Shown: positions 5,471-51,021 of the stretch, piece by piece | Numbering within the stretch: position 1 is the first letter of the stretch | Layout: the number at the start of each line of letters is the position of its first letter | DNA from: Escherichia phage vB_EcoP_EcoN5 | Sequence record: MN715356 | Direction: 5' to 3' (one strand) | Length of the DNA stretch: 64,000 nucleotides | The notes under the pieces: generated by a model | Told to the model about the DNA's origin: nothing | Database searches by the model: none | What the model saw: the letters and a program-made list of their open reading frames with translations, nothing else | Program-made: the position numbers and the translations under genes

Positions 5471-6253
5471 ATGGCAATTAGAATGGGTATCGAAGAACTA
5501 GACCCAATGGTACAGCAAGCTTCAAAGAAGTATGGTATTCCTGCTGCTTTGATTCATGCTGTAATCCAAAGAGAGTCTAGTGGTCGTCCTACAGTGGCCT
5601 CTGGAACTGGTCCTGTAGGTCTAATGCAGATCAGTAAAGGGTTGGCTAAAGACTATGGATACAAACTAGAAGATAGACTGGACCCAGCAAAGAATATTGA
5701 CATGGGTGCTCGTTATATCAGAGATAACTTAAAAGCTTTTAATGGTGATGTTAAGAAAGCAATGGTTGGTTACTCGGAAGGTATAGGCGGTGCTAAGCAG
5801 ATGTTCGCTGGTAAAAGAGGGTTTACCCCTCAAGCCCTTGACTCAATGAATAACAAACACTTTCTCCCTTTCTATGGTGATGCAGCTTCTCAGATTGCTA
5901 ATCCAATTGGAGCTTTACAAGCTGTTCAACCAATAGATCAGTTTAATCCAGAAAACCTAAATAGAGAGAAGGCTGCACAAGCTCCAACTCAGGCAGAGAT
6001 TGCTGCTTCTAAGACAGGTGCTTTAGGTGGTAATCCAGTAGAGTTCTACTCTGATGAAGTTCAGGAAGGTGAAGATCAGAAGCCTCAACAGAACTTTGGT
6101 AATGCAGTATTAGGAGTAGCTGCTATGCTTGCTGGTAAACCTCCCACCTCTCAAACAGTTCAGAGGGCAAGTGCACCACATGCAGCAGGTTCTCAGTACA
6201 GCCCACAAACACAAGCAGTGCTCAGACGTTTGGCTAGCATTGGTGTAAAGTAA
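5471..6253 (+). CDS. lytic transglycosylase (SLT domain), probably virion-associated
   Basis: 'LIHAVIQRESSGRP...GLMQISKGLAKDYGY' matches the E-S / GLMQ / Y signature of soluble lytic transglycosylases; RBS AAGGAG. Confidence 0.75.
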   Translation: MAIRMGIEELDPMVQQASKKYGIPAALIHAVIQRESSGRPTVASGTGPVGLMQISKGLAKDYGYKLEDRLDPAKNIDMGARYIRDNLKAFNGDVKKAMVGYSEGIGGAKQMFAGKRGFTPQALDSMNNKHFLPFYGDAASQIANPIGALQAVQPIDQFNPENLNREKAAQAPTQAEIAASKTGALGGNPVEFYSDEVQEGEDQKPQQNFGNAVLGVAAMLAGKPPTSQTVQRASAPHAAGSQYSPQTQAVLRRLASIGVK

Positions 6254-41242: not shown

Positions 41243-43273
41243 TTAACCTCTATTCAATGAACATTTAGGGGAATTACAATAAACTTGATTCATAGAACCA
41301 AGCGTACAACTTTCAGCATCGCGCCACGGAATCTGCTTAAAACACTCCGAGCAGTAGCCGAGGGTTGACCACATGGCTTTGGTGAAGTCAGTGCTTCGGT
41401 TTCCGTCGAAGCTGACAACAGTTTTGCGGAGAGCTGTTCGTGATTCAGGAAACACACCTGCTTTCTCAGCAGGTTCCTCCTTTTTTGGCTTAGTTGAGAT
41501 TGCAAAAACACTGTTGCTACGTTTCTCAACATAAGCATCAACAACATCTTCCAGAGTGATGCCTGTCTGTTTCGCTGAGGAAGGTAATACAGTCATACGA
41601 CCGATCATATCTTCAGTTACACGTAAAGCAAATTCAGGACGACGGGCGTTTGTTGTATCTGTTGCTTTAATCCAGATATAACCATCTTTGATCGTAGCAT
41701 TAGATACTTTCTTCTTTACTTCTACAGCGCAGACTTTACAGATATCTTCACCACGAAGACGACTGAGTTCCTCATCAAACTCATTCTCTGTTTTAACTTC
41801 ACCACAGATTTCACAAACACCAATAGGAGTCTCCTCCTCTTCTTCCTCTTTAGGTTTAGTCAAACCTTCCAGACATTCAGGATGCCAGTAGCACTGATAT
41901 GCGAAGACTGCTTTAGGTGCATCCTTCCAGTCAATGTGCTTGTCACAACCACCACAATCACCATGAGAGTGTGCTTCCCAGAATTTACGAGTGATAGTAA
42001 CGCCATTCTTGTTGACGAAACTATCATTCATGTCAAAAGGGATATCATCATCAAAGTCAGCAGTAGTAGACTCAGGCTCCTTTTTCTCCAGAGATGGGTC
42101 AACAAAACGACCTGCTGTGATCACTAAGCGAACCATAGCATTAACTTCGGAGATGCAGGATACTGTCCCACGGTAAACAATTTTAGGGTCTTTCAGGGCA
42201 TCCTGATAAGCCTTAATGTCCACGTTATGAACATCACCTTCTATATACTCTTGAGACTTCTCATCGTAGATATAACCGATCATTTTACCACGAGAAGGAA
42301 CAGCACCAGCAGTTGCATAAGGAATAAACTCATGCGGAGTGATTTCCACAGTCATATCACGACGGATATCAATGTTTCGATCGCTTGCGATTTTGTTTTG
42401 ACTTACCACTGCGTTTCTTCGACGAACGTCTGCCGCTGTCACTCCCGGCTTCGTGTCGTAAGGATTGCTTGTATTGCTTTTTGAGGAACTTTGATAGTTG
42501 CTTTGGCTGTAGTTGTTCGAATAGTAACTGCCCCAACGATTGATTACCGTAAAAACCGGAAGCTCGTGGGCGACCTCTTCAACCAGAGTCATGCTGTTGT
42601 TTGACATATCAAAGATGTATTCTGTACCAACTTTACATTCAAAATGCTCGTCAATACGGTTCTTATGAGACTTAGAACGCTTCAGAATCCACATCAACAT
42701 ATCTTCTTCAGAAGCACCAAACCAGTCTCTGTTACAACGTGCGAGGTGGAATGGACGCTCTTCGTTACGGATGATATGAAGACGGTTATCAGAAGCATCA
42801 TGCCAGATTAAGGTGAAAGCACCATCCAGCTTTTGAATAGTCTCTGCTGCACCAATAGTGTTAATAGAGTGGCAGATGTTCTCACTGTCTACCTCGAAGT
42901 TTTTACTGTCAGGTAACAGGTCTTGGTCCATCAAGGTTCCGTTATGAACCAGAGTGATGTTACCGTGTTGGAAAGGATGGGCGTTCTTGGCGTTAACTGC
43001 ACCTTTCGTTGCATGACGGCTGTGACCAACAATCCATGAAGGCGCTACAGTGTAAGCTGTTTCACCAGTGGTGTGCTTCTTGTACTCATCTTGAAGGATG
43101 AATGCGAAAGAAGGAAGTGCCTCTTTATAAGTGAAGACTTCCTTAGTGCTCTTACGCTGACCAAAGATACCAGAGGAATGCTGCCCTCGGAATACCCCAG
43201 CATAAAAGAGTTGGTTAAATACGTCTAAATCAGTGCTTGACAGATTACCGCCAGCTAATACGATGCCACAAAT
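41243..43273 (-). CDS. class II (Ntn) glutamine amidotransferase with ~400-aa Cys-rich C-terminal extension
   Basis: Track ORF starts at TTG 42934 but the frame continues upstream to 'KICGIVLAGG...GQHSSGIFG...GHSRHATKG...NAHPFQ' (GATase-II signature); only plausible initiator is ATT 43271-43273, 8 nt after AGGTGG. Confidence 0.55.
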   Translation of the reverse strand: MCGIVLAGGNLSSTDLDVFNQLFYAGVFRGQHSSGIFGQRKSTKEVFTYKEALPSFAFILQDEYKKHTTGETAYTVAPSWIVGHSRHATKGAVNAKNAHPFQHGNITLVHNGTLMDQDLLPDSKNFEVDSENICHSINTIGAAETIQKLDGAFTLIWHDASDNRLHIIRNEERPFHLARCNRDWFGASEEDMLMWILKRSKSHKNRIDEHFECKVGTEYIFDMSNNSMTLVEEVAHELPVFTVINRWGSYYSNNYSQSNYQSSSKSNTSNPYDTKPGVTAADVRRRNAVVSQNKIASDRNIDIRRDMTVEITPHEFIPYATAGAVPSRGKMIGYIYDEKSQEYIEGDVHNVDIKAYQDALKDPKIVYRGTVSCISEVNAMVRLVITAGRFVDPSLEKKEPESTTADFDDDIPFDMNDSFVNKNGVTITRKFWEAHSHGDCGGCDKHIDWKDAPKAVFAYQCYWHPECLEGLTKPKEEEEEETPIGVCEICGEVKTENEFDEELSRLRGEDICKVCAVEVKKKVSNATIKDGYIWIKATDTTNARRPEFALRVTEDMIGRMTVLPSSAKQTGITLEDVVDAYVEKRSNSVFAISTKPKKEEPAEKAGVFPESRTALRKTVVSFDGNRSTDFTKAMWSTLGYCSECFKQIPWRDAESCTLGSMNQVYCNSPKCSLNRG

Positions 43274-43352
43274 TTTCTAATCCACCTGAAGGGTAAACCC
43301 TTTCATCTAATTAACCTTTAAATTGTGCCCCTTTGTCAGAGGCACCCATTGA

Positions 43353-44456
43353 TTACAGCGCTTGCTCTAACTGATTTTCCAGATGATCTGGAATGTACCC
43401 TGTGATGTTGTTATCACTATGGCCTGACTCACGTAGTAAGTCAAAAATAGCACGGATACGTTGCTCTGGTGCAGATCGTACAGTAGATAGGTCAGTTGTA
43501 CGAAGCATAACCAGAATCTCTTGGTACAAGTTGTTAGCGTTCCCTCGGACATATCCAAGGAATCCGTAGAAGTCTGAGATATGACGTAGGTCAACAAGAA
43601 CTTCTCCGTTGGAGTTGGTTCGACGTAAACGAATACGACCAGACTGTTCTACTTCATGAGAACGACAATACAAAACATCACGGGCCATACAATAGCCTGA
43701 ATGCAAATCCGATTCATCCAGATTGTAATCCAGAGGAAGGTAAGGAAGCATTGGGGCAAATCGTACAGTATTTAAGTGCTCGATAAACTGATCATTGCTC
43801 ATATCTGCATTATCTAGAGCCAGCTTCTTCAACATCAAGAAGCGGTTAACCAGATTGAGAAGTTGACCACGTTTCCACTTAGGCTCACTGATACGGAACT
43901 CAATCGAACCGTATTGGGCAAGTGGCAGAAGATTCAGGGATGTATACTTATCCCATGAACGAACCAGACGGTTGAAGAACTCTTCGTCGTCGTAGTTAAA
44001 TGCGTCAGAGGCATTCATTACCTGTGCTTGTACCACTGCAAAAGCAGGGCAGAAGTTGCTACGGTAACGATGGTAGCCTGAACACTTGAACAACATCTTT
44101 TCATAGAAGGTCCAAGCGAGAATGGTTTTCTTGAGGATATTACTATCAGCATCCCTCATATCCATATGAACGTGAGTAGAGCAACGCCAAGTCCCCTCGG
44201 CGTGCGATTCAGCTACTGCTTCACTCAGGTTGTTGATAGCGTCTAACAACTCCTGTCCGTTGTAAGGCCGTGAACATACCATTTCACAACCATTACGCAG
44301 GGAACCATCCTCTGTACAATCCCACATATCTGCTTCGATATGATCGGAACCTTCTAGTTCAAGTTCAATACCGACACCGCACTGAAGTGCAATTGAACTA
44401 TGCGCCTCAGTTAAACGCCCTTCTCGATATCCAAAAGTTTGCGCTACAGTTGTCAT
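43353..44456 (-). CDS. glutamine-synthetase-like carboxylate-amine ligase (amidoligase)
   Basis: 'GVGIELELEG' and 'CSTHVHMD' resemble GCS2/amidoligase motifs. Confidence 0.5.
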   Translation of the reverse strand: MTTVAQTFGYREGRLTEAHSSIALQCGVGIELELEGSDHIEADMWDCTEDGSLRNGCEMVCSRPYNGQELLDAINNLSEAVAESHAEGTWRCSTHVHMDMRDADSNILKKTILAWTFYEKMLFKCSGYHRYRSNFCPAFAVVQAQVMNASDAFNYDDEEFFNRLVRSWDKYTSLNLLPLAQYGSIEFRISEPKWKRGQLLNLVNRFLMLKKLALDNADMSNDQFIEHLNTVRFAPMLPYLPLDYNLDESDLHSGYCMARDVLYCRSHEVEQSGRIRLRRTNSNGEVLVDLRHISDFYGFLGYVRGNANNLYQEILVMLRTTDLSTVRSAPEQRIRAIFDLLRESGHSDNNITGYIPDHLENQLEQAL

Positions 44457-46860: not shown

Positions 46861-48057
46861 TTATTTTCCTAAAAATAATCCGCTCATGACACCATCCCAC
46901 TCAGAGGAAGGAATCACTGAATACTCCGAACTTTGGTCCAGAGTCCCACTACTAAATCGCTGAACAATGTTGTAGATGTTGAACAGGTCTTTAGTCTCGG
47001 CACGAATGCCGTAGATTAGCCTGTTAGCTGTTTTCTCATTTTTAGACACGCGACGGGTAAAGTTAACCAAAAGATTATCACCTTTAAGTATCTCTGACCC
47101 ATCTTTTACTAGATCGGGGTGCATCACTGGCAAGAACATTGAGTTGTTAACTCGTAATTCTGCTGTTTCATCATTCTCATAATGAATCCACTTAAAGTCT
47201 TCATCACGGAAATGACCACACCCATCTCTGTATGACTGTTGACGCCAAGGAACTTGAAATGCTTCAGAGTGTTTATCAGCCATGCCGACTGTAAACAGCG
47301 ACGCTGGGAAGATACAAGCATCCCAATCATTACCAACCAGAGTTGCTTTCGTTTCCCCTAAGAGGTTAGTGTAAGTGCTAACCATTCGTGAGTAAACGTA
47401 AGCCTGAAGAATTGTCCAGCCTTCAACCAACCATTTATGAAGGAAGGTTTCAACTTGACTCTCTTCATCTTCGCAATAGAAGGTTCTATCTAACATTAAA
47501 TAGAACAGACAACGATCAGCAGGAACATTCTCAGTTGCTACCCCCATAAAGCCTTTCTCGTGCCAGCGTAAACAGGAGGGACGATCTTTGTCCACAAATG
47601 CTTCCATAGCTTCCAGTACAGCACGAGGTGTGGTTCGATATTCAGGGTTTTTGTCGTTCCAACGATCAATGTTATTCTTAGGAGGTGTGTCTTCATCTTC
47701 ATACGAACACCAACTTAAAGCTTCAGCTACGTGCTTTTCATCACGCCAGCGTCTAAAACCTAACATCTTCATGTGAGTTCCGGAGTTCCAGATATGCTTG
47801 ATTTTACACATATCCATCTCTCGGCTTAACAGGAATTCTTCCCCATCAGCACTACGAACGTTAGCCTCTTCATGCCACACTCGAACGTGCATATTCCACC
47901 CATGAGTTGCCTCATACATGTTAGGGTCGAAGTATTCATCTTCGTCATCATCTTCATCAACGCCACCGTTATAGTTGCGAAGCTGAAGGAACCCATAACA
48001 AGGAGGGTTGACCGTTAAAACATTACCTTCAGTATCTTCTAATGTTACTGGAAACAT
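46861..48057 (-). CDS. hypothetical protein; first 54 codons lie inside the duplicated segment
   Basis: 398-aa ORF with acidic N-terminal 'DEDDDEDEY' stretch. Confidence 0.4.
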   Translation of the reverse strand: MFPVTLEDTEGNVLTVNPPCYGFLQLRNYNGGVDEDDDEDEYFDPNMYEATHGWNMHVRVWHEEANVRSADGEEFLLSREMDMCKIKHIWNSGTHMKMLGFRRWRDEKHVAEALSWCSYEDEDTPPKNNIDRWNDKNPEYRTTPRAVLEAMEAFVDKDRPSCLRWHEKGFMGVATENVPADRCLFYLMLDRTFYCEDEESQVETFLHKWLVEGWTILQAYVYSRMVSTYTNLLGETKATLVGNDWDACIFPASLFTVGMADKHSEAFQVPWRQQSYRDGCGHFRDEDFKWIHYENDETAELRVNNSMFLPVMHPDLVKDGSEILKGDNLLVNFTRRVSKNEKTANRLIYGIRAETKDLFNIYNIVQRFSSGTLDQSSEYSVIPSSEWDGVMSGLFLGK

Positions 48058-48068
48058 TATACCAACCT

Positions 48069-48431
48069 CTATTGGTTTTTAATCAACTCAATCGACTTAC
48101 GGATATAAAGAATATCTCGGAAGTTTCGATAGTTGTTCATAAATTGGTGCTTCTGGAAAGTAGCTTCTTCCAGAGCTTTCTTTGCTTCTGCGTAATTTTT
48201 ACGGGCAAGATGTACAACCCGCTCTGGTAACACATTTGCACGACGGATGATATACTTGTGAGCTTTCATGTTGCTTTGCTCACGAGCAATCTTACATTTA
48301 GCAACTTTGATACCATTTGCAATCCAAGCAAGTTCTTGCTCAAGCTCATCGTTGGACATTCCACCGAGATTTGATGCAACCTTGTTCAGAGTTTCAATAT
48401 TAACGTTGCCCTTAATGGGACGTGTATTCAT
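48069..48431 (-). CDS. hypothetical protein (copy 1)
   Basis: 120-aa ORF, basic, helical; duplicated at 49587-49949. Confidence 0.4.
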   Translation of the reverse strand: MNTRPIKGNVNIETLNKVASNLGGMSNDELEQELAWIANGIKVAKCKIAREQSNMKAHKYIIRRANVLPERVVHLARKNYAEAKKALEEATFQKHQFMNNYRNFRDILYIRKSIELIKNQ

Positions 48432-48433
48432 AC

Positions 48434-48586
48434 TTACTCCTGTTGTTTACACTCGTCAATAACCCACTGATAAGTGGATTGCCCAGAAAAGAAACACTGA
48501 ATAAATCCAGATGTTCTCTGCGTTACCAGTGCTAGTGCACAAATCACTACCGCTGCTGCTAGCAGTTTTAAATCTAATTTAGACAT
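48434..48586 (-). CDS. small membrane / signal-peptide protein (copy 1)
   Basis: Hand-translated ~50-aa ORF 'MSKLDLKLLAAAVVICALALV...' with RBS GAGGAAAT; below track cutoff. Confidence 0.3.
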   Translation of the reverse strand: MSKLDLKLLAAAVVICALALVTQRTSGFIQCFFSGQSTYQWVIDECKQQE

Positions 48587-48823
48587 ATTTCCTCTCATTG
48601 AATTTAAAAAAGGACTCTCCGAAAAGAGCCAAGCTTTAAATCCAAAAAAAGATATTACCCAATATCTGTGGATAACCTGCTCTTAAAATATCTATCCGAC
48701 GGATGTTTGAGGAACACTCCTCTCCCTAGCATCGGCCCCATACGGGAAATATATTAAGATTAGGTTAGTTGAGTCAGAATAACTCACATAGCCCTCCGAG
48801 GAAGGCTATAGGTGTTACTACAA

Positions 48824-49039
48824 CTAAAAATCACCTGATTTTACAAAATCATCACTAAGAATTTCGTCAATCTCTTTGCTAGTCAAATCTTTCCTGAACC
48901 AGCAACAAGGTACATCCACCCATTGACCAGAGTTGTTTTCTACAGAGCATCTATTGCCTGTCTTACTCTTGCACTTATAGGTTTTACCTTTGTCTAGACG
49001 GTAGTGTATTCTGTAAACGATCGACACAAGTGTTATCAT
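48824..49039 (-). CDS. Cys-containing small protein (copy 1)
   Basis: 71-aa ORF with 'CKSKTGNRC...PCCW'. Confidence 0.35.
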   Translation of the reverse strand: MITLVSIVYRIHYRLDKGKTYKCKSKTGNRCSVENNSGQWVDVPCCWFRKDLTSKEIDEILSDDFVKSGDF

Positions 49040-49272
49040 TACTCGCCTTTCTTAGCACGATCTTTGGCAGTTTTGCCAGTGCGGATGCGATGGGAAACGT
49101 TAACCAGAGTGCCACCATCAACTACGGTAACGCTCTTGTTTTTAGCCAGATCGAACACAGTTTTCTCCGTGCCACCCAAGCGAATTTGCTTAGGCTCACT
49201 GAAGGTTTGGGTTGATTTAGATTGGAACTGAAACGGTTGACGGATTGCATCAATTGCACTTACTTTAGACAT
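49039..49272 (-). CDS. hypothetical protein (copy 1)
   Basis: 77-aa ORF preceded by hairpin and conserved motif. Confidence 0.4.
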   Translation of the reverse strand: MSKVSAIDAIRQPFQFQSKSTQTFSEPKQIRLGGTEKTVFDLAKNKSVTVVDGGTLVNVSHRIRTGKTAKDRAKKGE

Positions 49273-49586
49273 AGTGGAAATTCCTTAAAAAGTTATGGCT
49301 GCGTAGAGGGAATTCCCTACGCAAATTGGGCCGCCTAAAAAGAGGCGTCATAGTACTAAAAGGAGGAGAGAAGAGGGCTTATTTAGCTACCTTTTTCTGT
49401 CCGTTTACAAACCCCACCCATGAGTTGCCTCATACATGTTAGGGTCGAAGTATTCATCTTCGTCATCATCTTCATCAACGCCACCGTTATAGTTGCGAAG
49501 CTGAAGGAACCCATAACAAGGAGGGTTGACCGTTAAAACATTACCTTCAGTATCTTCTAATGTTACTGGAAACATTATACCAACCT

Positions 49587-49949
49587 CTATTGGTTTTTAA
49601 TCAACTCAATCGACTTACGGATATAAAGAATATCTCGGAAGTTTCGATAGTTGTTCATAAATTGGTGCTTCTGGAAAGTAGCTTCTTCCAGAGCTTTCTT
49701 TGCTTCTGCGTAATTTTTACGGGCAAGATGTACAACCCGCTCTGGTAACACATTTGCACGACGGATGATATACTTGTGAGCTTTCATGTTGCTTTGCTCA
49801 CGAGCAATCTTACATTTAGCAACTTTGATACCATTTGCAATCCAAGCAAGTTCTTGCTCAAGCTCATCGTTGGACATTCCACCGAGATTTGATGCAACCT
49901 TGTTCAGAGTTTCAATATTAACGTTGCCCTTAATGGGACGTGTATTCAT
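49587..49949 (-). CDS. hypothetical protein (copy 2, identical to 48069-48431)
   Basis: Identical translation. Confidence 0.4.
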   Translation of the reverse strand: MNTRPIKGNVNIETLNKVASNLGGMSNDELEQELAWIANGIKVAKCKIAREQSNMKAHKYIIRRANVLPERVVHLARKNYAEAKKALEEATFQKHQFMNNYRNFRDILYIRKSIELIKNQ

Positions 49950-50341
49950 ACTTACTCCTGTTGTTTACACTCGTCAATAACCCACTGATAAGTGGATTGC
50001 CCAGAAAAGAAACACTGAATAAATCCAGATGTTCTCTGCGTTACCAGTGCTAGTGCACAAATCACTACCGCTGCTGCTAGCAGTTTTAAATCTAATTTAG
50101 ACATATTTCCTCTCATTGAATTTAAAAAAGGACTCTCCGAAAAGAGCCAAGCTTTAAATCCAAAAAAAGATATTACCCAATATCTGTGGATAACCTGCTC
50201 TTAAAATATCTATCCGACGGATGTTTGAGGAACACTCCTCTCCCTAGCATCGGCCCCATACGGGAAATATATTAAGATTAGGTTAGTTGAGTCAGAATAA
50301 CTCACATAGCCCTCCGAGGAAGGCTATAGGTGTTACTACAA

Positions 50342-50557
50342 CTAAAAATCACCTGATTTTACAAAATCATCACTAAGAATTTCGTCAATCTCTTTGCTAG
50401 TCAAATCTTTCCTGAACCAGCAACAAGGTACATCCACCCATTGACCAGAGTTGTTTTCTACAGAGCATCTATTGCCTGTCTTACTCTTGCACTTATAGGT
50501 TTTACCTTTGTCTAGACGGTAGTGTATTCTGTAAACGATCGACACAAGTGTTATCAT
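50342..50557 (-). CDS. Cys-containing small protein (copy 2)
   Basis: Identical translation to 48824-49039. Confidence 0.35.
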   Translation of the reverse strand: MITLVSIVYRIHYRLDKGKTYKCKSKTGNRCSVENNSGQWVDVPCCWFRKDLTSKEIDEILSDDFVKSGDF

Positions 50558-50790
50558 TACTCGCCTTTCTTAGCACGATCTTTGGCAGTTTTGCCAGTGC
50601 GGATGCGATGGGAAACGTTAACCAGAGTGCCACCATCAACTACGGTAACGCTCTTGTTTTTAGCCAGATCGAACACAGTTTTCTCCGTGCCACCCAAGCG
50701 AATTTGCTTAGGCTCACTGAAGGTTTGGGTTGATTTAGATTGGAACTGAAACGGTTGACGGATTGCATCAATTGCACTTACTTTAGACAT
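50557..50790 (-). CDS. hypothetical protein (copy 2)
   Basis: Identical translation to 49039-49272. Confidence 0.4.
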   Translation of the reverse strand: MSKVSAIDAIRQPFQFQSKSTQTFSEPKQIRLGGTEKTVFDLAKNKSVTVVDGGTLVNVSHRIRTGKTAKDRAKKGE

Positions 50791-51021
50791 AGTGGAAATT
50801 CCTTAAAAAGTTATGGCTGCGTAGAGGGAATTCCCTACGCAAATTGGGCCGCCTAAAAAGAGGCGTCATAGTACTAAAAGGAGGAGAGAAGAGGGCTTAT
50901 TTAGCTACCTTTTTCTGTCCGTTTACAAACCAGATAATCGAACCGTCAGGCTGTCGTTGACCGAAGCCTTTTTGGTTAATCATATCGTCATAAGAATATG
51001 CTTTACGTCTCATTTGTTTTC

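Follow-up and report, generated by a model that had tools for sequence, protein, structure and literature searches.

Where does translation begin in a gene whose catalytic codon is preceded directly by ATT and, two codons further upstream, by an in-frame stop? The question is raised by a 64,000-nt stretch of Escherichia phage vB_EcoP_EcoN5 (sequence record MN715356), hereafter the window, on whose scale all window coordinates are given. The window comes from a podovirus of phiEco32-like type (Kuravirus); a search with 801 nt spanning the site matched 95 phage records, with a best identity of 98%. On its minus strand, the gene for a class-II (N-terminal nucleophile, Ntn) glutamine amidotransferase (GATase), the homolog of phi32_83, reads ATG (43306-43304) AAA GGG TTT ACC CTT CAG GTG GAT TAG (43279-43277) AAA (43276-43274) ATT (43273-43271) TGT (43270-43268) GGC ATC GTA. 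The original prediction, made from the sequence alone, had described a 9-codon upstream open reading frame (ORF) in the GATase frame, ended by the in-frame TAG, and sequence and translation give exactly this arrangement (MKGFTLQVD*, 43277..43306, minus strand). It had also placed the real start directly before TGT, at ATT, 8 nt after AGGTGG. In our analysis, AUU at 43273-43271 is very probably the start codon of the amidotransferase. That ATT is the start and that the leader in front of it is the footprint of a homing endonuclease gene (HEG) are together what we consider a likely account of the locus.

ATT as the start codon of the amidotransferase

The frame read from ATT comprises 676 codons and is open to the stop at 41243 (41243..43273, minus strand) by sequence and translation. 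The N-terminal ~230 aa of the protein make up the GATase domain (Pfam GATase_6, 55 bits with a cutoff of 27; GATase_7, 27.4 bits with a cutoff of 25), and the C-terminal ~440 aa are Cys-rich without an assigned function. The match to phrog_4736 (E=2e-201) runs from the first residue of the protein, with Cys1 at profile position 2. Residues invariant across 62 diverse sequences (C2, G3, R29, G30, H110-N111-G112 and D129) correspond to the nucleophile, Arg, oxyanion Asn-Gly and Asp of GlmS and PurF (R26, N98-G99 and D123 in GlmS); alignment to the GlmS and PurF structures in the PDB is weak (E 0.03), yet it coincides with the R, HNG and D motifs. Judged by family profile and catalytic motifs, the predicted product is a class-II (Ntn) glutamine amidotransferase, in which the TGT at 43268..43270 (minus strand) would supply the catalytic nucleophile, Cys1, after removal of fMet.

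The ATT at 43271..43273 (minus strand) aligns with the ATG of ATG-TGY-GG in all six distant homologs, which come from phages of Proteus, Cronobacter, Aeromonas, Vibrio, Pseudoalteromonas and Pseudomonas. Comparison with homologs, proposed in the original prediction as a check, bears it out, since these begin Met-Cys-Gly at the aligned position and the window frame has no canonical start from the in-frame TAG to Cys1. The start codon directly precedes the invariant Cys-Gly in ten aligned homologs and ~190 further loci; most of them have ATG there, and the Kuravirus group and many other lineages have ATT. The Shine-Dalgarno (SD) sequence AGGTGG is found, as predicted, at 43287-43282 (43282..43287, minus strand), its AGGUG being complementary to the 16S 3′ end. 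It is followed by an A-rich 8-nt spacer, ATTAGAAA (43274..43281, minus strand), which holds the in-frame TAG. Two marks of an AUU-initiated gene, a start position shared with homologs and an SD at functional spacing, are found at 43273. The 30S subunit would be recruited by AGGUGG 8 nt upstream of AUU, initiator tRNA would insert fMet there, and deformylase and Met-aminopeptidase would then expose Cys1, the Ntn nucleophile. The coding sequence already starts at this ATT in the GenBank records of phiEco32 (phi32_83), SU10 (SU10_085), and BASEL Bas89 and Bas90, a point that the original prediction did not contain. The predicted N-terminal peptide of the ATT-started product, within residues 1-112, is CGIVLAGGNLSSTDLDVFNQLFYAGVFR.

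Two other placements of the start are very improbable. Many records follow a RefSeq-style model in which the functional product of 562-563 aa starts at TTG-ATG (42929..42934, minus strand) and the upstream 113 codons would be decaying. The original prediction had allowed for this, with a dispensable N-terminal domain and TTG 42934, the next in-frame canonical start (codon +113), as the true one. This TTG lies inside the GATase domain and past HNG, so starting there would remove Cys1, the conserved Arg and Asn-Gly; NJ01 RefSeq and Paul records, which start the gene 113 codons downstream, lose exactly these residues. The internal start has no SD, and the PHROG and family profiles begin at Cys1. 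Between Kuravirus subgroups, the N-terminal 113 codons show 41-44 synonymous and 23-25 non-synonymous codon differences; they are under purifying selection, open in all relatives, and hold the catalytic Cys1, Arg and HNG that are invariant in the 62 sequences. Mass spectrometry of SU10 detected the protein, and the table gives an expected mass of 63.8 kDa (PMC4281155), which fits the truncated 563-aa model; the SU10 peptides therefore probably cannot show the N-terminus, which counts against the AUU start. The second placement, just as improbable, has translation starting at ATG 43306, the TAG read through or recoded, and a propeptide MKGFTLQVDxKI removed autocatalytically as in Bacillus subtilis PurF. 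Self-cleaved propeptides exist in some Ntn amidotransferases, and the 9-codon ORF is indeed in the GATase frame. Such processing solves the same problem, exposing Cys1, yet in B. subtilis PurF it needs an uninterrupted in-frame extension, unlike here, where TAG interrupts it at 43279-77 and ~150 homologs begin Met-Cys without a propeptide. As a stop, TAG is used by 2 of 38 ORFs of at least 150 aa in a mechanical ORF list, the one tRNA found by ARAGORN in the window is tRNA-Arg(TCT) and no suppressor, other ATT leaders lack an in-frame upstream start, and the upstream peptide shows no conservation of its amino acids. The read-through considered in the original prediction thus has little in its favor. 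We also rejected a programmed frameshift at AAAATTTG: its geometry misses the GATase frame, and other leader types have no slippery run.

Recurrence of ATT across the GATase family

Homologous loci were gathered from IMG/VR (80) and from metagenomes (80), and the start codon was read off the invariant Cys-Gly anchor. As the Ntn Cys anchors the start unambiguously, this provides an unbiased start-codon count for the family. The IMG/VR set has 57 ATG, 12 ATT, two ATC (one of them a mis-registered locus), four TTG and one GTG, and the metagenome set has 57 ATG, 15 ATT, three ATC and one GTG. In none of the ATT or ATC loci does a canonical start occur from the upstream in-frame stop to Cys1. After clustering at 80% identity, ATT/ATC is present in 20 of the 112 clusters (~18%) and GTG/TTG in 5 (~4%), which makes ATT/ATC commoner than GTG and TTG together before Cys1 in this phage GATase family and illustrates how frequent non-canonical starts can be locally. 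Lineages with ATT are dispersed over the family, and their closest relatives usually carry ATG. A survey of 2.3 Mb of fetched loci for ATT modules was kept out of these frequencies, as the loci had been chosen for ATT leaders and are hence biased.

A hairpin-SD cassette in ATT leaders

In the window, a 5-bp hairpin, AAGGG-TTTA-CCCTT (43289..43302, minus strand; dG about -4.6 kcal/mol), abuts the SD. It occurs there in one copy, and a scan of the window for other hairpin and SD modules gave no convincing case. Similar hairpins are found in ATT/ATC leaders across the family, with a perfect stem of 5-7(8) bp, a loop of 3-5 nt, and dG of -2.7 to -7 kcal/mol. At its 3′ end, 11-15 nt before the start, the hairpin adjoins (A/C/T)GGAGG, and the spacer from SD to start is exactly 8 nt in 12 of the 15 ATT/ATC leaders with a good SD. 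The stems are unrelated in sequence between lineages, with 25 distinct GATase-leader stems. The feature is specific to these starts: a hairpin is present in 14 of 20 ATT/ATC clusters and 4 of 98 others (Fisher p=2e-10), and, once leaders with less than 20 nt of upstream gap are set aside, in 12 of 15 ATT/ATC and 1 of 30 others (p=2e-7), p-values that overstate the number of independent events, since clusters are not phylogenetically independent if cassettes spread horizontally. The second comparison rules out intergenic length as a confounder of the association. A pattern scan for GGAGGAT-N6-ATTTGYGG retrieved 16 unique GATase ATT leaders, of which 12 have the hairpin and ten are new, while chance matches with the same SD seldom have a hairpin.

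In clusters that mix ATG and ATT (70-98% protein identity), the whole leaders differ and a point change is never the difference; no ATG leader with the hairpin module was found in these clusters. Spacers such as ATTAGAAA and ATAGTCCY are common to proteins that are only 35-45% identical, and ATTAGAAA is present in BUCT695, in three further loci (L124, L177 and L257; L numbers denote individual loci), and at gene 14 of Kayfunavirus. A cassette of ~30 nt, consisting of hairpin, (A)GGAGG, 8 nt and AUU/AUC, replaces the ordinary ATG leader as a unit in roughly a fifth of the family's lineages. ATT leaders without a HEG often start right at the hairpin's 5′ base, leaving gaps of 20-32 nt to the upstream gene; this resembles a natural series of deletions and points to a need for the hairpin when AUU is the start. 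AUU initiation would be weak and possibly IF3-sensitive, and the strong SD, the fixed spacing and the hairpin plausibly compensate. A 5-bp hairpin directly 5′ of the SD would keep the SD exposed, and it may act by coaxial stacking on or stabilizing the SD helix, or by protecting the mRNA 5′ end. A separate class-II GATase subgroup (CGIFGAKDFT...; L192, L205, L233) has ATT before Cys1 and AGGAGG at 8 nt without a hairpin.

Conservation of the Kuravirus leader

The hairpin, SD and start belong to an ultra-conserved leader block (43263..43322, minus strand) that the Kuravirus subgroups share without change. Between the subgroups, identity is 100% at positions -50..+8 and 71-74% in the adjacent coding DNA. 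The original prediction had listed a sequencing error among its alternatives, and an error is ruled out: of 97 phage records, 67 have the 60-nt leader unchanged and 28 more are one base off (synonymous GGC>GGT in the records read), and it recurs in independent metagenome assemblies. Aeromonas phage BUCT695, from another family (Grimontviridae) and with a GATase protein that is 53% identical, keeps ATT and matches 52 of 55 leader positions by blastn; a global alignment with Kuravirus gives 84% identity for -55..-1 and 93% for 0..+14, compared with 59-63% for the coding sequence. Its short ORF reads MKGLTLQAD*, and both differences from MKGFTLQVD* are non-synonymous. Other ATT leaders do not have this short ORF.

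Rfam holds no family for the leader, with chance hits of 16-17 bits against gathering scores of 44-70. Scanning the Kuravirus leader for the gp36 promoter (AATGTA; consensus from PMC12276001 and PMC8948821) or a sigma-70 promoter gave no convincing match. AATGTAA is present upstream in BUCT695 and other Grimontviridae.

Association with homing endonucleases

Many ATT/ATC leaders are adjoined upstream by a HEG, an ORF of 133-164 aa with Pfam HNH_3/His-Me-finger similarity. Intact ORFs of this kind lie directly upstream of 8 of the 31 ATT/ATC leaders and none of the 107 canonical leaders, and the count rises to 10 of 31, again versus 0 of 107, when remnants detectable by tblastn are included. 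In L209, the upstream ORF is of AP2-HNH type instead. Pairs of near-identical alleles that differ in the presence of the HEG are found among relatives of the window. L083 (with HEG and ATT) differs from L079 (without HEG and with ATG), and L139 from L155, by an insertion of 489-500 nt inside ATGTGTG^G; the flanks of L083 and L079 are 96% identical, and the junctions in both pairs fall within ATGTGTGG. Upstream of the insertion, the old ribosome-binding site (RBS) and ATGTGTG(G) are kept as a 4-codon ORF, followed by a promoter, the HEG, an SD, an 8-nt spacer and ATT-TGTGG. Near-consensus sigma-70 promoters (TTGACA-N17-TATAAT) are located upstream of the HEG in L083, L139, L169 and L215, just past the ATGTGTG remnant.

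Two relatives link this pattern to the Kuravirus leader. In BUCT695, the 246 nt upstream of the leader contain a decayed HEG copy, MDKVLKKITHQGDCWLWTGCINSDGYPKE*, together with a helix-turn-helix remnant in another frame. In L177, which like BUCT695 has a HEG remnant, the HEG ORF ends ...Q-E-D-TAG-AAA-ATT, with the same frame and register as ...Q-V-D-TAG-AAA-ATT in Kuravirus. The cassette is probably the 3′ end of free-standing His-Me/HNH HEG insertions that land in the conserved ATG-TGT-GG start, each leaving the old RBS and ATGTGTG upstream and bringing a new RBS with ATT downstream. In Kuravirus, the HEG would since have been deleted, and the TAG and 9-codon ORF are probably its fossil stop and residual reading frame. 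That the Kuravirus leader as a whole is a HEG footprint, the surviving 3′ end of such an insertion, appears fairly likely from these comparisons. The BUCT695 HEG pseudogene is unannotated (L018 2292-2500, between the ligase gene and the GATase leader), and the BUCT695 record starts the GATase at an internal ATG (locus position 2572).

The persistence of ATT could have several reasons. The change may shield an allele with the HEG from the nuclease that it encodes, the rest of the target, TGT-GG, being fixed by catalysis. Alternatively, it may act as a retention ratchet in which the downstream gene depends on the HEG-borne RBS, comparable to the promoters of the T4 seg/mob genes (PMC2988022). 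Simple expression tuning is a third possible reason.

The cassette at other genes

A search of IMG/VR for GGNGGATTAGAAAATT returned 92 unique chance matches. Two of them have an adjacent hairpin, and only in these two does the ATT open a long ORF. The first belongs to the T7-like Kayfunavirus ZG49, an Escherichia phage, where the ORF is gene 14 (internal virion protein B) and matches phrog_805 at positions 2-188 of 189. The other is a virion structural protein (phrog_6121) on the minus strand of L331, whose first canonical in-frame start is at codon 84. The latter gene appears to start at the ATT at plus-strand 5822-5824 (8206 on the reverse complement), which follows an 11-bp hairpin and AGGAGGATTAGAAA.

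At gene 14, phages without the HEG (K1F, P413 and T7) read ATG-TGC/TGT. ZG49 and Penshu1 have an Endonuclease_7 (EndoVII) gene upstream and hairpin-GGGGGATTAGAAA-ATT-TGC at gene 14, with the HEG stopping at that TAG; the ATT is at 441-443 in both loci (L387 for ZG49 and L386 for Penshu1). A leader-specific search found the Kayfunavirus ATT allele in ~19 INPHARED records. Since gene callers ignore ATT, the two records examined both place the gp14 start at an ATG further downstream, at codon 9 or 19.

Alternative explanations

Two further accounts accept ATT as the start and explain the leader differently. AUU might be used mainly by termination-reinitiation, with the 9-codon ORF translated, the hairpin unwound, and ribosomes stopping at TAG 43279-77 and restarting 3 nt on; the short ORF would then be a functional coupling device and not a relic, an account that partly overlaps with the HEG footprint. 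The ATG and TAG of the short ORF are conserved in Kuravirus and BUCT695, the HEG ORFs of L177 and Kayfunavirus end at the same TAG 3 nt before ATT, in about one in three ATT leaders an ORF of some kind stops 4-7 nt before ATT, and the infC AUU of Escherichia coli is likewise 3 nt past the thrS stop (PMC3592434). However, many ATT leaders (L049, L062, L124, L125, L126 and L137) lack any ORF of 8 aa or more that stops in the 30 nt upstream, and the gaps to the upstream gene vary from 1 to 246 nt; coupling of translation to an upstream ORF that ends in the spacer was rejected as a general rule for ATT leaders. The short ORF's own SD is weak (AAAGG), both BUCT695 differences alter its peptide, and a strong SD at optimal spacing favors de novo initiation. 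The reinitiation raised in the original prediction may contribute in Kuravirus and is not a general feature of ATT leaders; as the main mode of AUU use, we regard it as unlikely.

The other account, which we hold to be a little less likely still, is that ATT arose repeatedly and independently of HEGs as a means of tuning expression down, with SD and hairpin as convergent compensation and the HEG link incidental. The genes pcnB and infC are precedents for AUU limiting expression. In E. coli reporters, AUU is 6-8-fold weaker than AUG (PMC3592434), and 20 of the 31 ATT/ATC leaders show no trace of a HEG. Against this stand the HEG association itself (10 of 31 versus 0 of 107), the exchange of leaders as whole cassettes with an ATG version never seen, the spacers shared by distant proteins, and the insertion junctions inside ATGTGTGG.

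The HEG footprint reading has observations against it as well. The same 20 leaders have neither a HEG nor a remnant, and in the window neither an HEG ORF nor a tblastn trace was found at 43230-43420, the 79-nt Kuravirus gap containing no detectable remnant. The presence/absence polymorphism comes from relatives of the window, and the footprint claim for the window draws on BUCT695 and the family-wide pattern. In Klebsiella phage MUC100, gene 14 keeps ATG behind an EndoVII HEG, so the link between HEG and ATT is not absolute. Leaders of type D (L083, L139 and L165) have ATT without the hairpin, RNAfold offers an alternative fold of the Kuravirus leader that pairs part of the SD, and horizontal spread would lower the number of independent events behind the hairpin statistics. 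AUU initiation is read from sequence comparison, and both the function of the hairpin and the reason for ATT are what we infer.

Relation to known systems

AUU starts, HEG-embedded expression signals, and the ATT start of phi32_83 in GenBank are already known. A literature search for ATT/AUU starts in phages or beside HEGs, which did not cover the original phiEco32 papers, found nothing relevant. The recurrence of ATT across the family, the hairpin-SD-N8-AUU cassette and its tie to homing endonucleases are new, with no earlier description found; all three go beyond the original prediction. As in E. coli infC and pcnB, AUU would be read by initiator tRNA with weak initiation and an SD, and, as in infC, it lies 3 nt past an upstream stop. 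Unlike the phage leaders, those genes have no known conserved hairpin abutting the SD, and the phage element is a transferable cassette, linked to HEGs, in many unrelated lineages and genes.

In T4, the free-standing HEGs of the seg/mob type have expression signals of downstream genes embedded in them, favoring their retention (PMC2988022). The element studied here likewise sits between genes, displaces the native signals of its neighbor and supplies new ones from or near its own 3′ end. The seg43(25) endonuclease gene itself has a hairpin directly upstream of its RBS that does not sequester the RBS (PMC2988022). The embedded signals in T4 are promoters, whereas here they form a cassette that binds ribosomes and has a non-canonical start, the insertion hits the start codon plus the catalytic Cys-Gly codons, and the cassette outlives the HEG. 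The protein resembles GlmS, PurF and AsnB in its N-terminal Cys nucleophile after Met removal and in the conserved Arg, Asn-Gly oxyanion hole and Asp. It differs from them as a phage-specific subfamily with an unrelated Cys-rich C-terminal region of ~440 aa and a cluster of amidoligase and ATP-grasp genes.

For annotation, the NJ01 and Paul records carry this amidotransferase without its catalytic Cys. For translation, a hairpin at the 5′ edge of the SD, 8 nt from AUU, would be a natural, repeatedly selected design for a poor start codon. HEGs that insert into start and catalytic codons with their own RBS and a non-AUG start suggest a model for self-immunity or enforced retention. More speculatively, and with the odds somewhat against the full combination, His-Me/HNH HEGs may target both ATG-TGT-GG of the amidotransferase and ATG-TGY of the T7-like gene 14 and carry a portable hairpin-SD-N8-AUU cassette; the G>T change in the start would give immunity to re-cleavage or dependence on the RBS, and the hairpin would be an enhancer for efficient AUU initiation. 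If true, this would be a new class of mobile translation-initiation element, by which selfish genes influence the usage of start codons in a new way, and gene callers that ignore ATT would miss it.

Genomic context of the amidotransferase gene

The GATase gene sits in a phiEco32-type cluster with genes for Amidoligase_2, a COOH-NH2 ligase and a RimK-like ATP-grasp protein. The Amidoligase_2 gene (Pfam PF12224; homolog of phi32_84) lies upstream at 43353..44456 (minus strand), and a terminator-like hairpin followed by AATTT is predicted 3′ of it by RNAfold (43325..43345, minus strand) and annotated as a terminator in WFI101126. The stem of this hairpin shows compensatory changes between Kuravirus subgroups (GGTGCC/GGCAC vs GGCGC/GCGCC). 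The ATP-grasp neighbor at 39597-40799 (minus strand) has a RimK-like match that is below threshold (19 bits with a cutoff of 21), and database names for it such as ‘ribosomal protein S6 glutaminyl transferase’ are unsupported beyond the fold.

The window also includes a perfect tandem duplication of 1518 bp (47896-49413 and 49414-50931, 100% identity). Its junction is spanned by 0 of 80 related phage records, so it is either unique to MN715356 or an assembly artefact. A scan of a bacterial genome collection recovered seven relatives of the GATase subfamily, mostly on small contigs or in metagenome-assembled genomes, and the subfamily is therefore essentially phage-borne.

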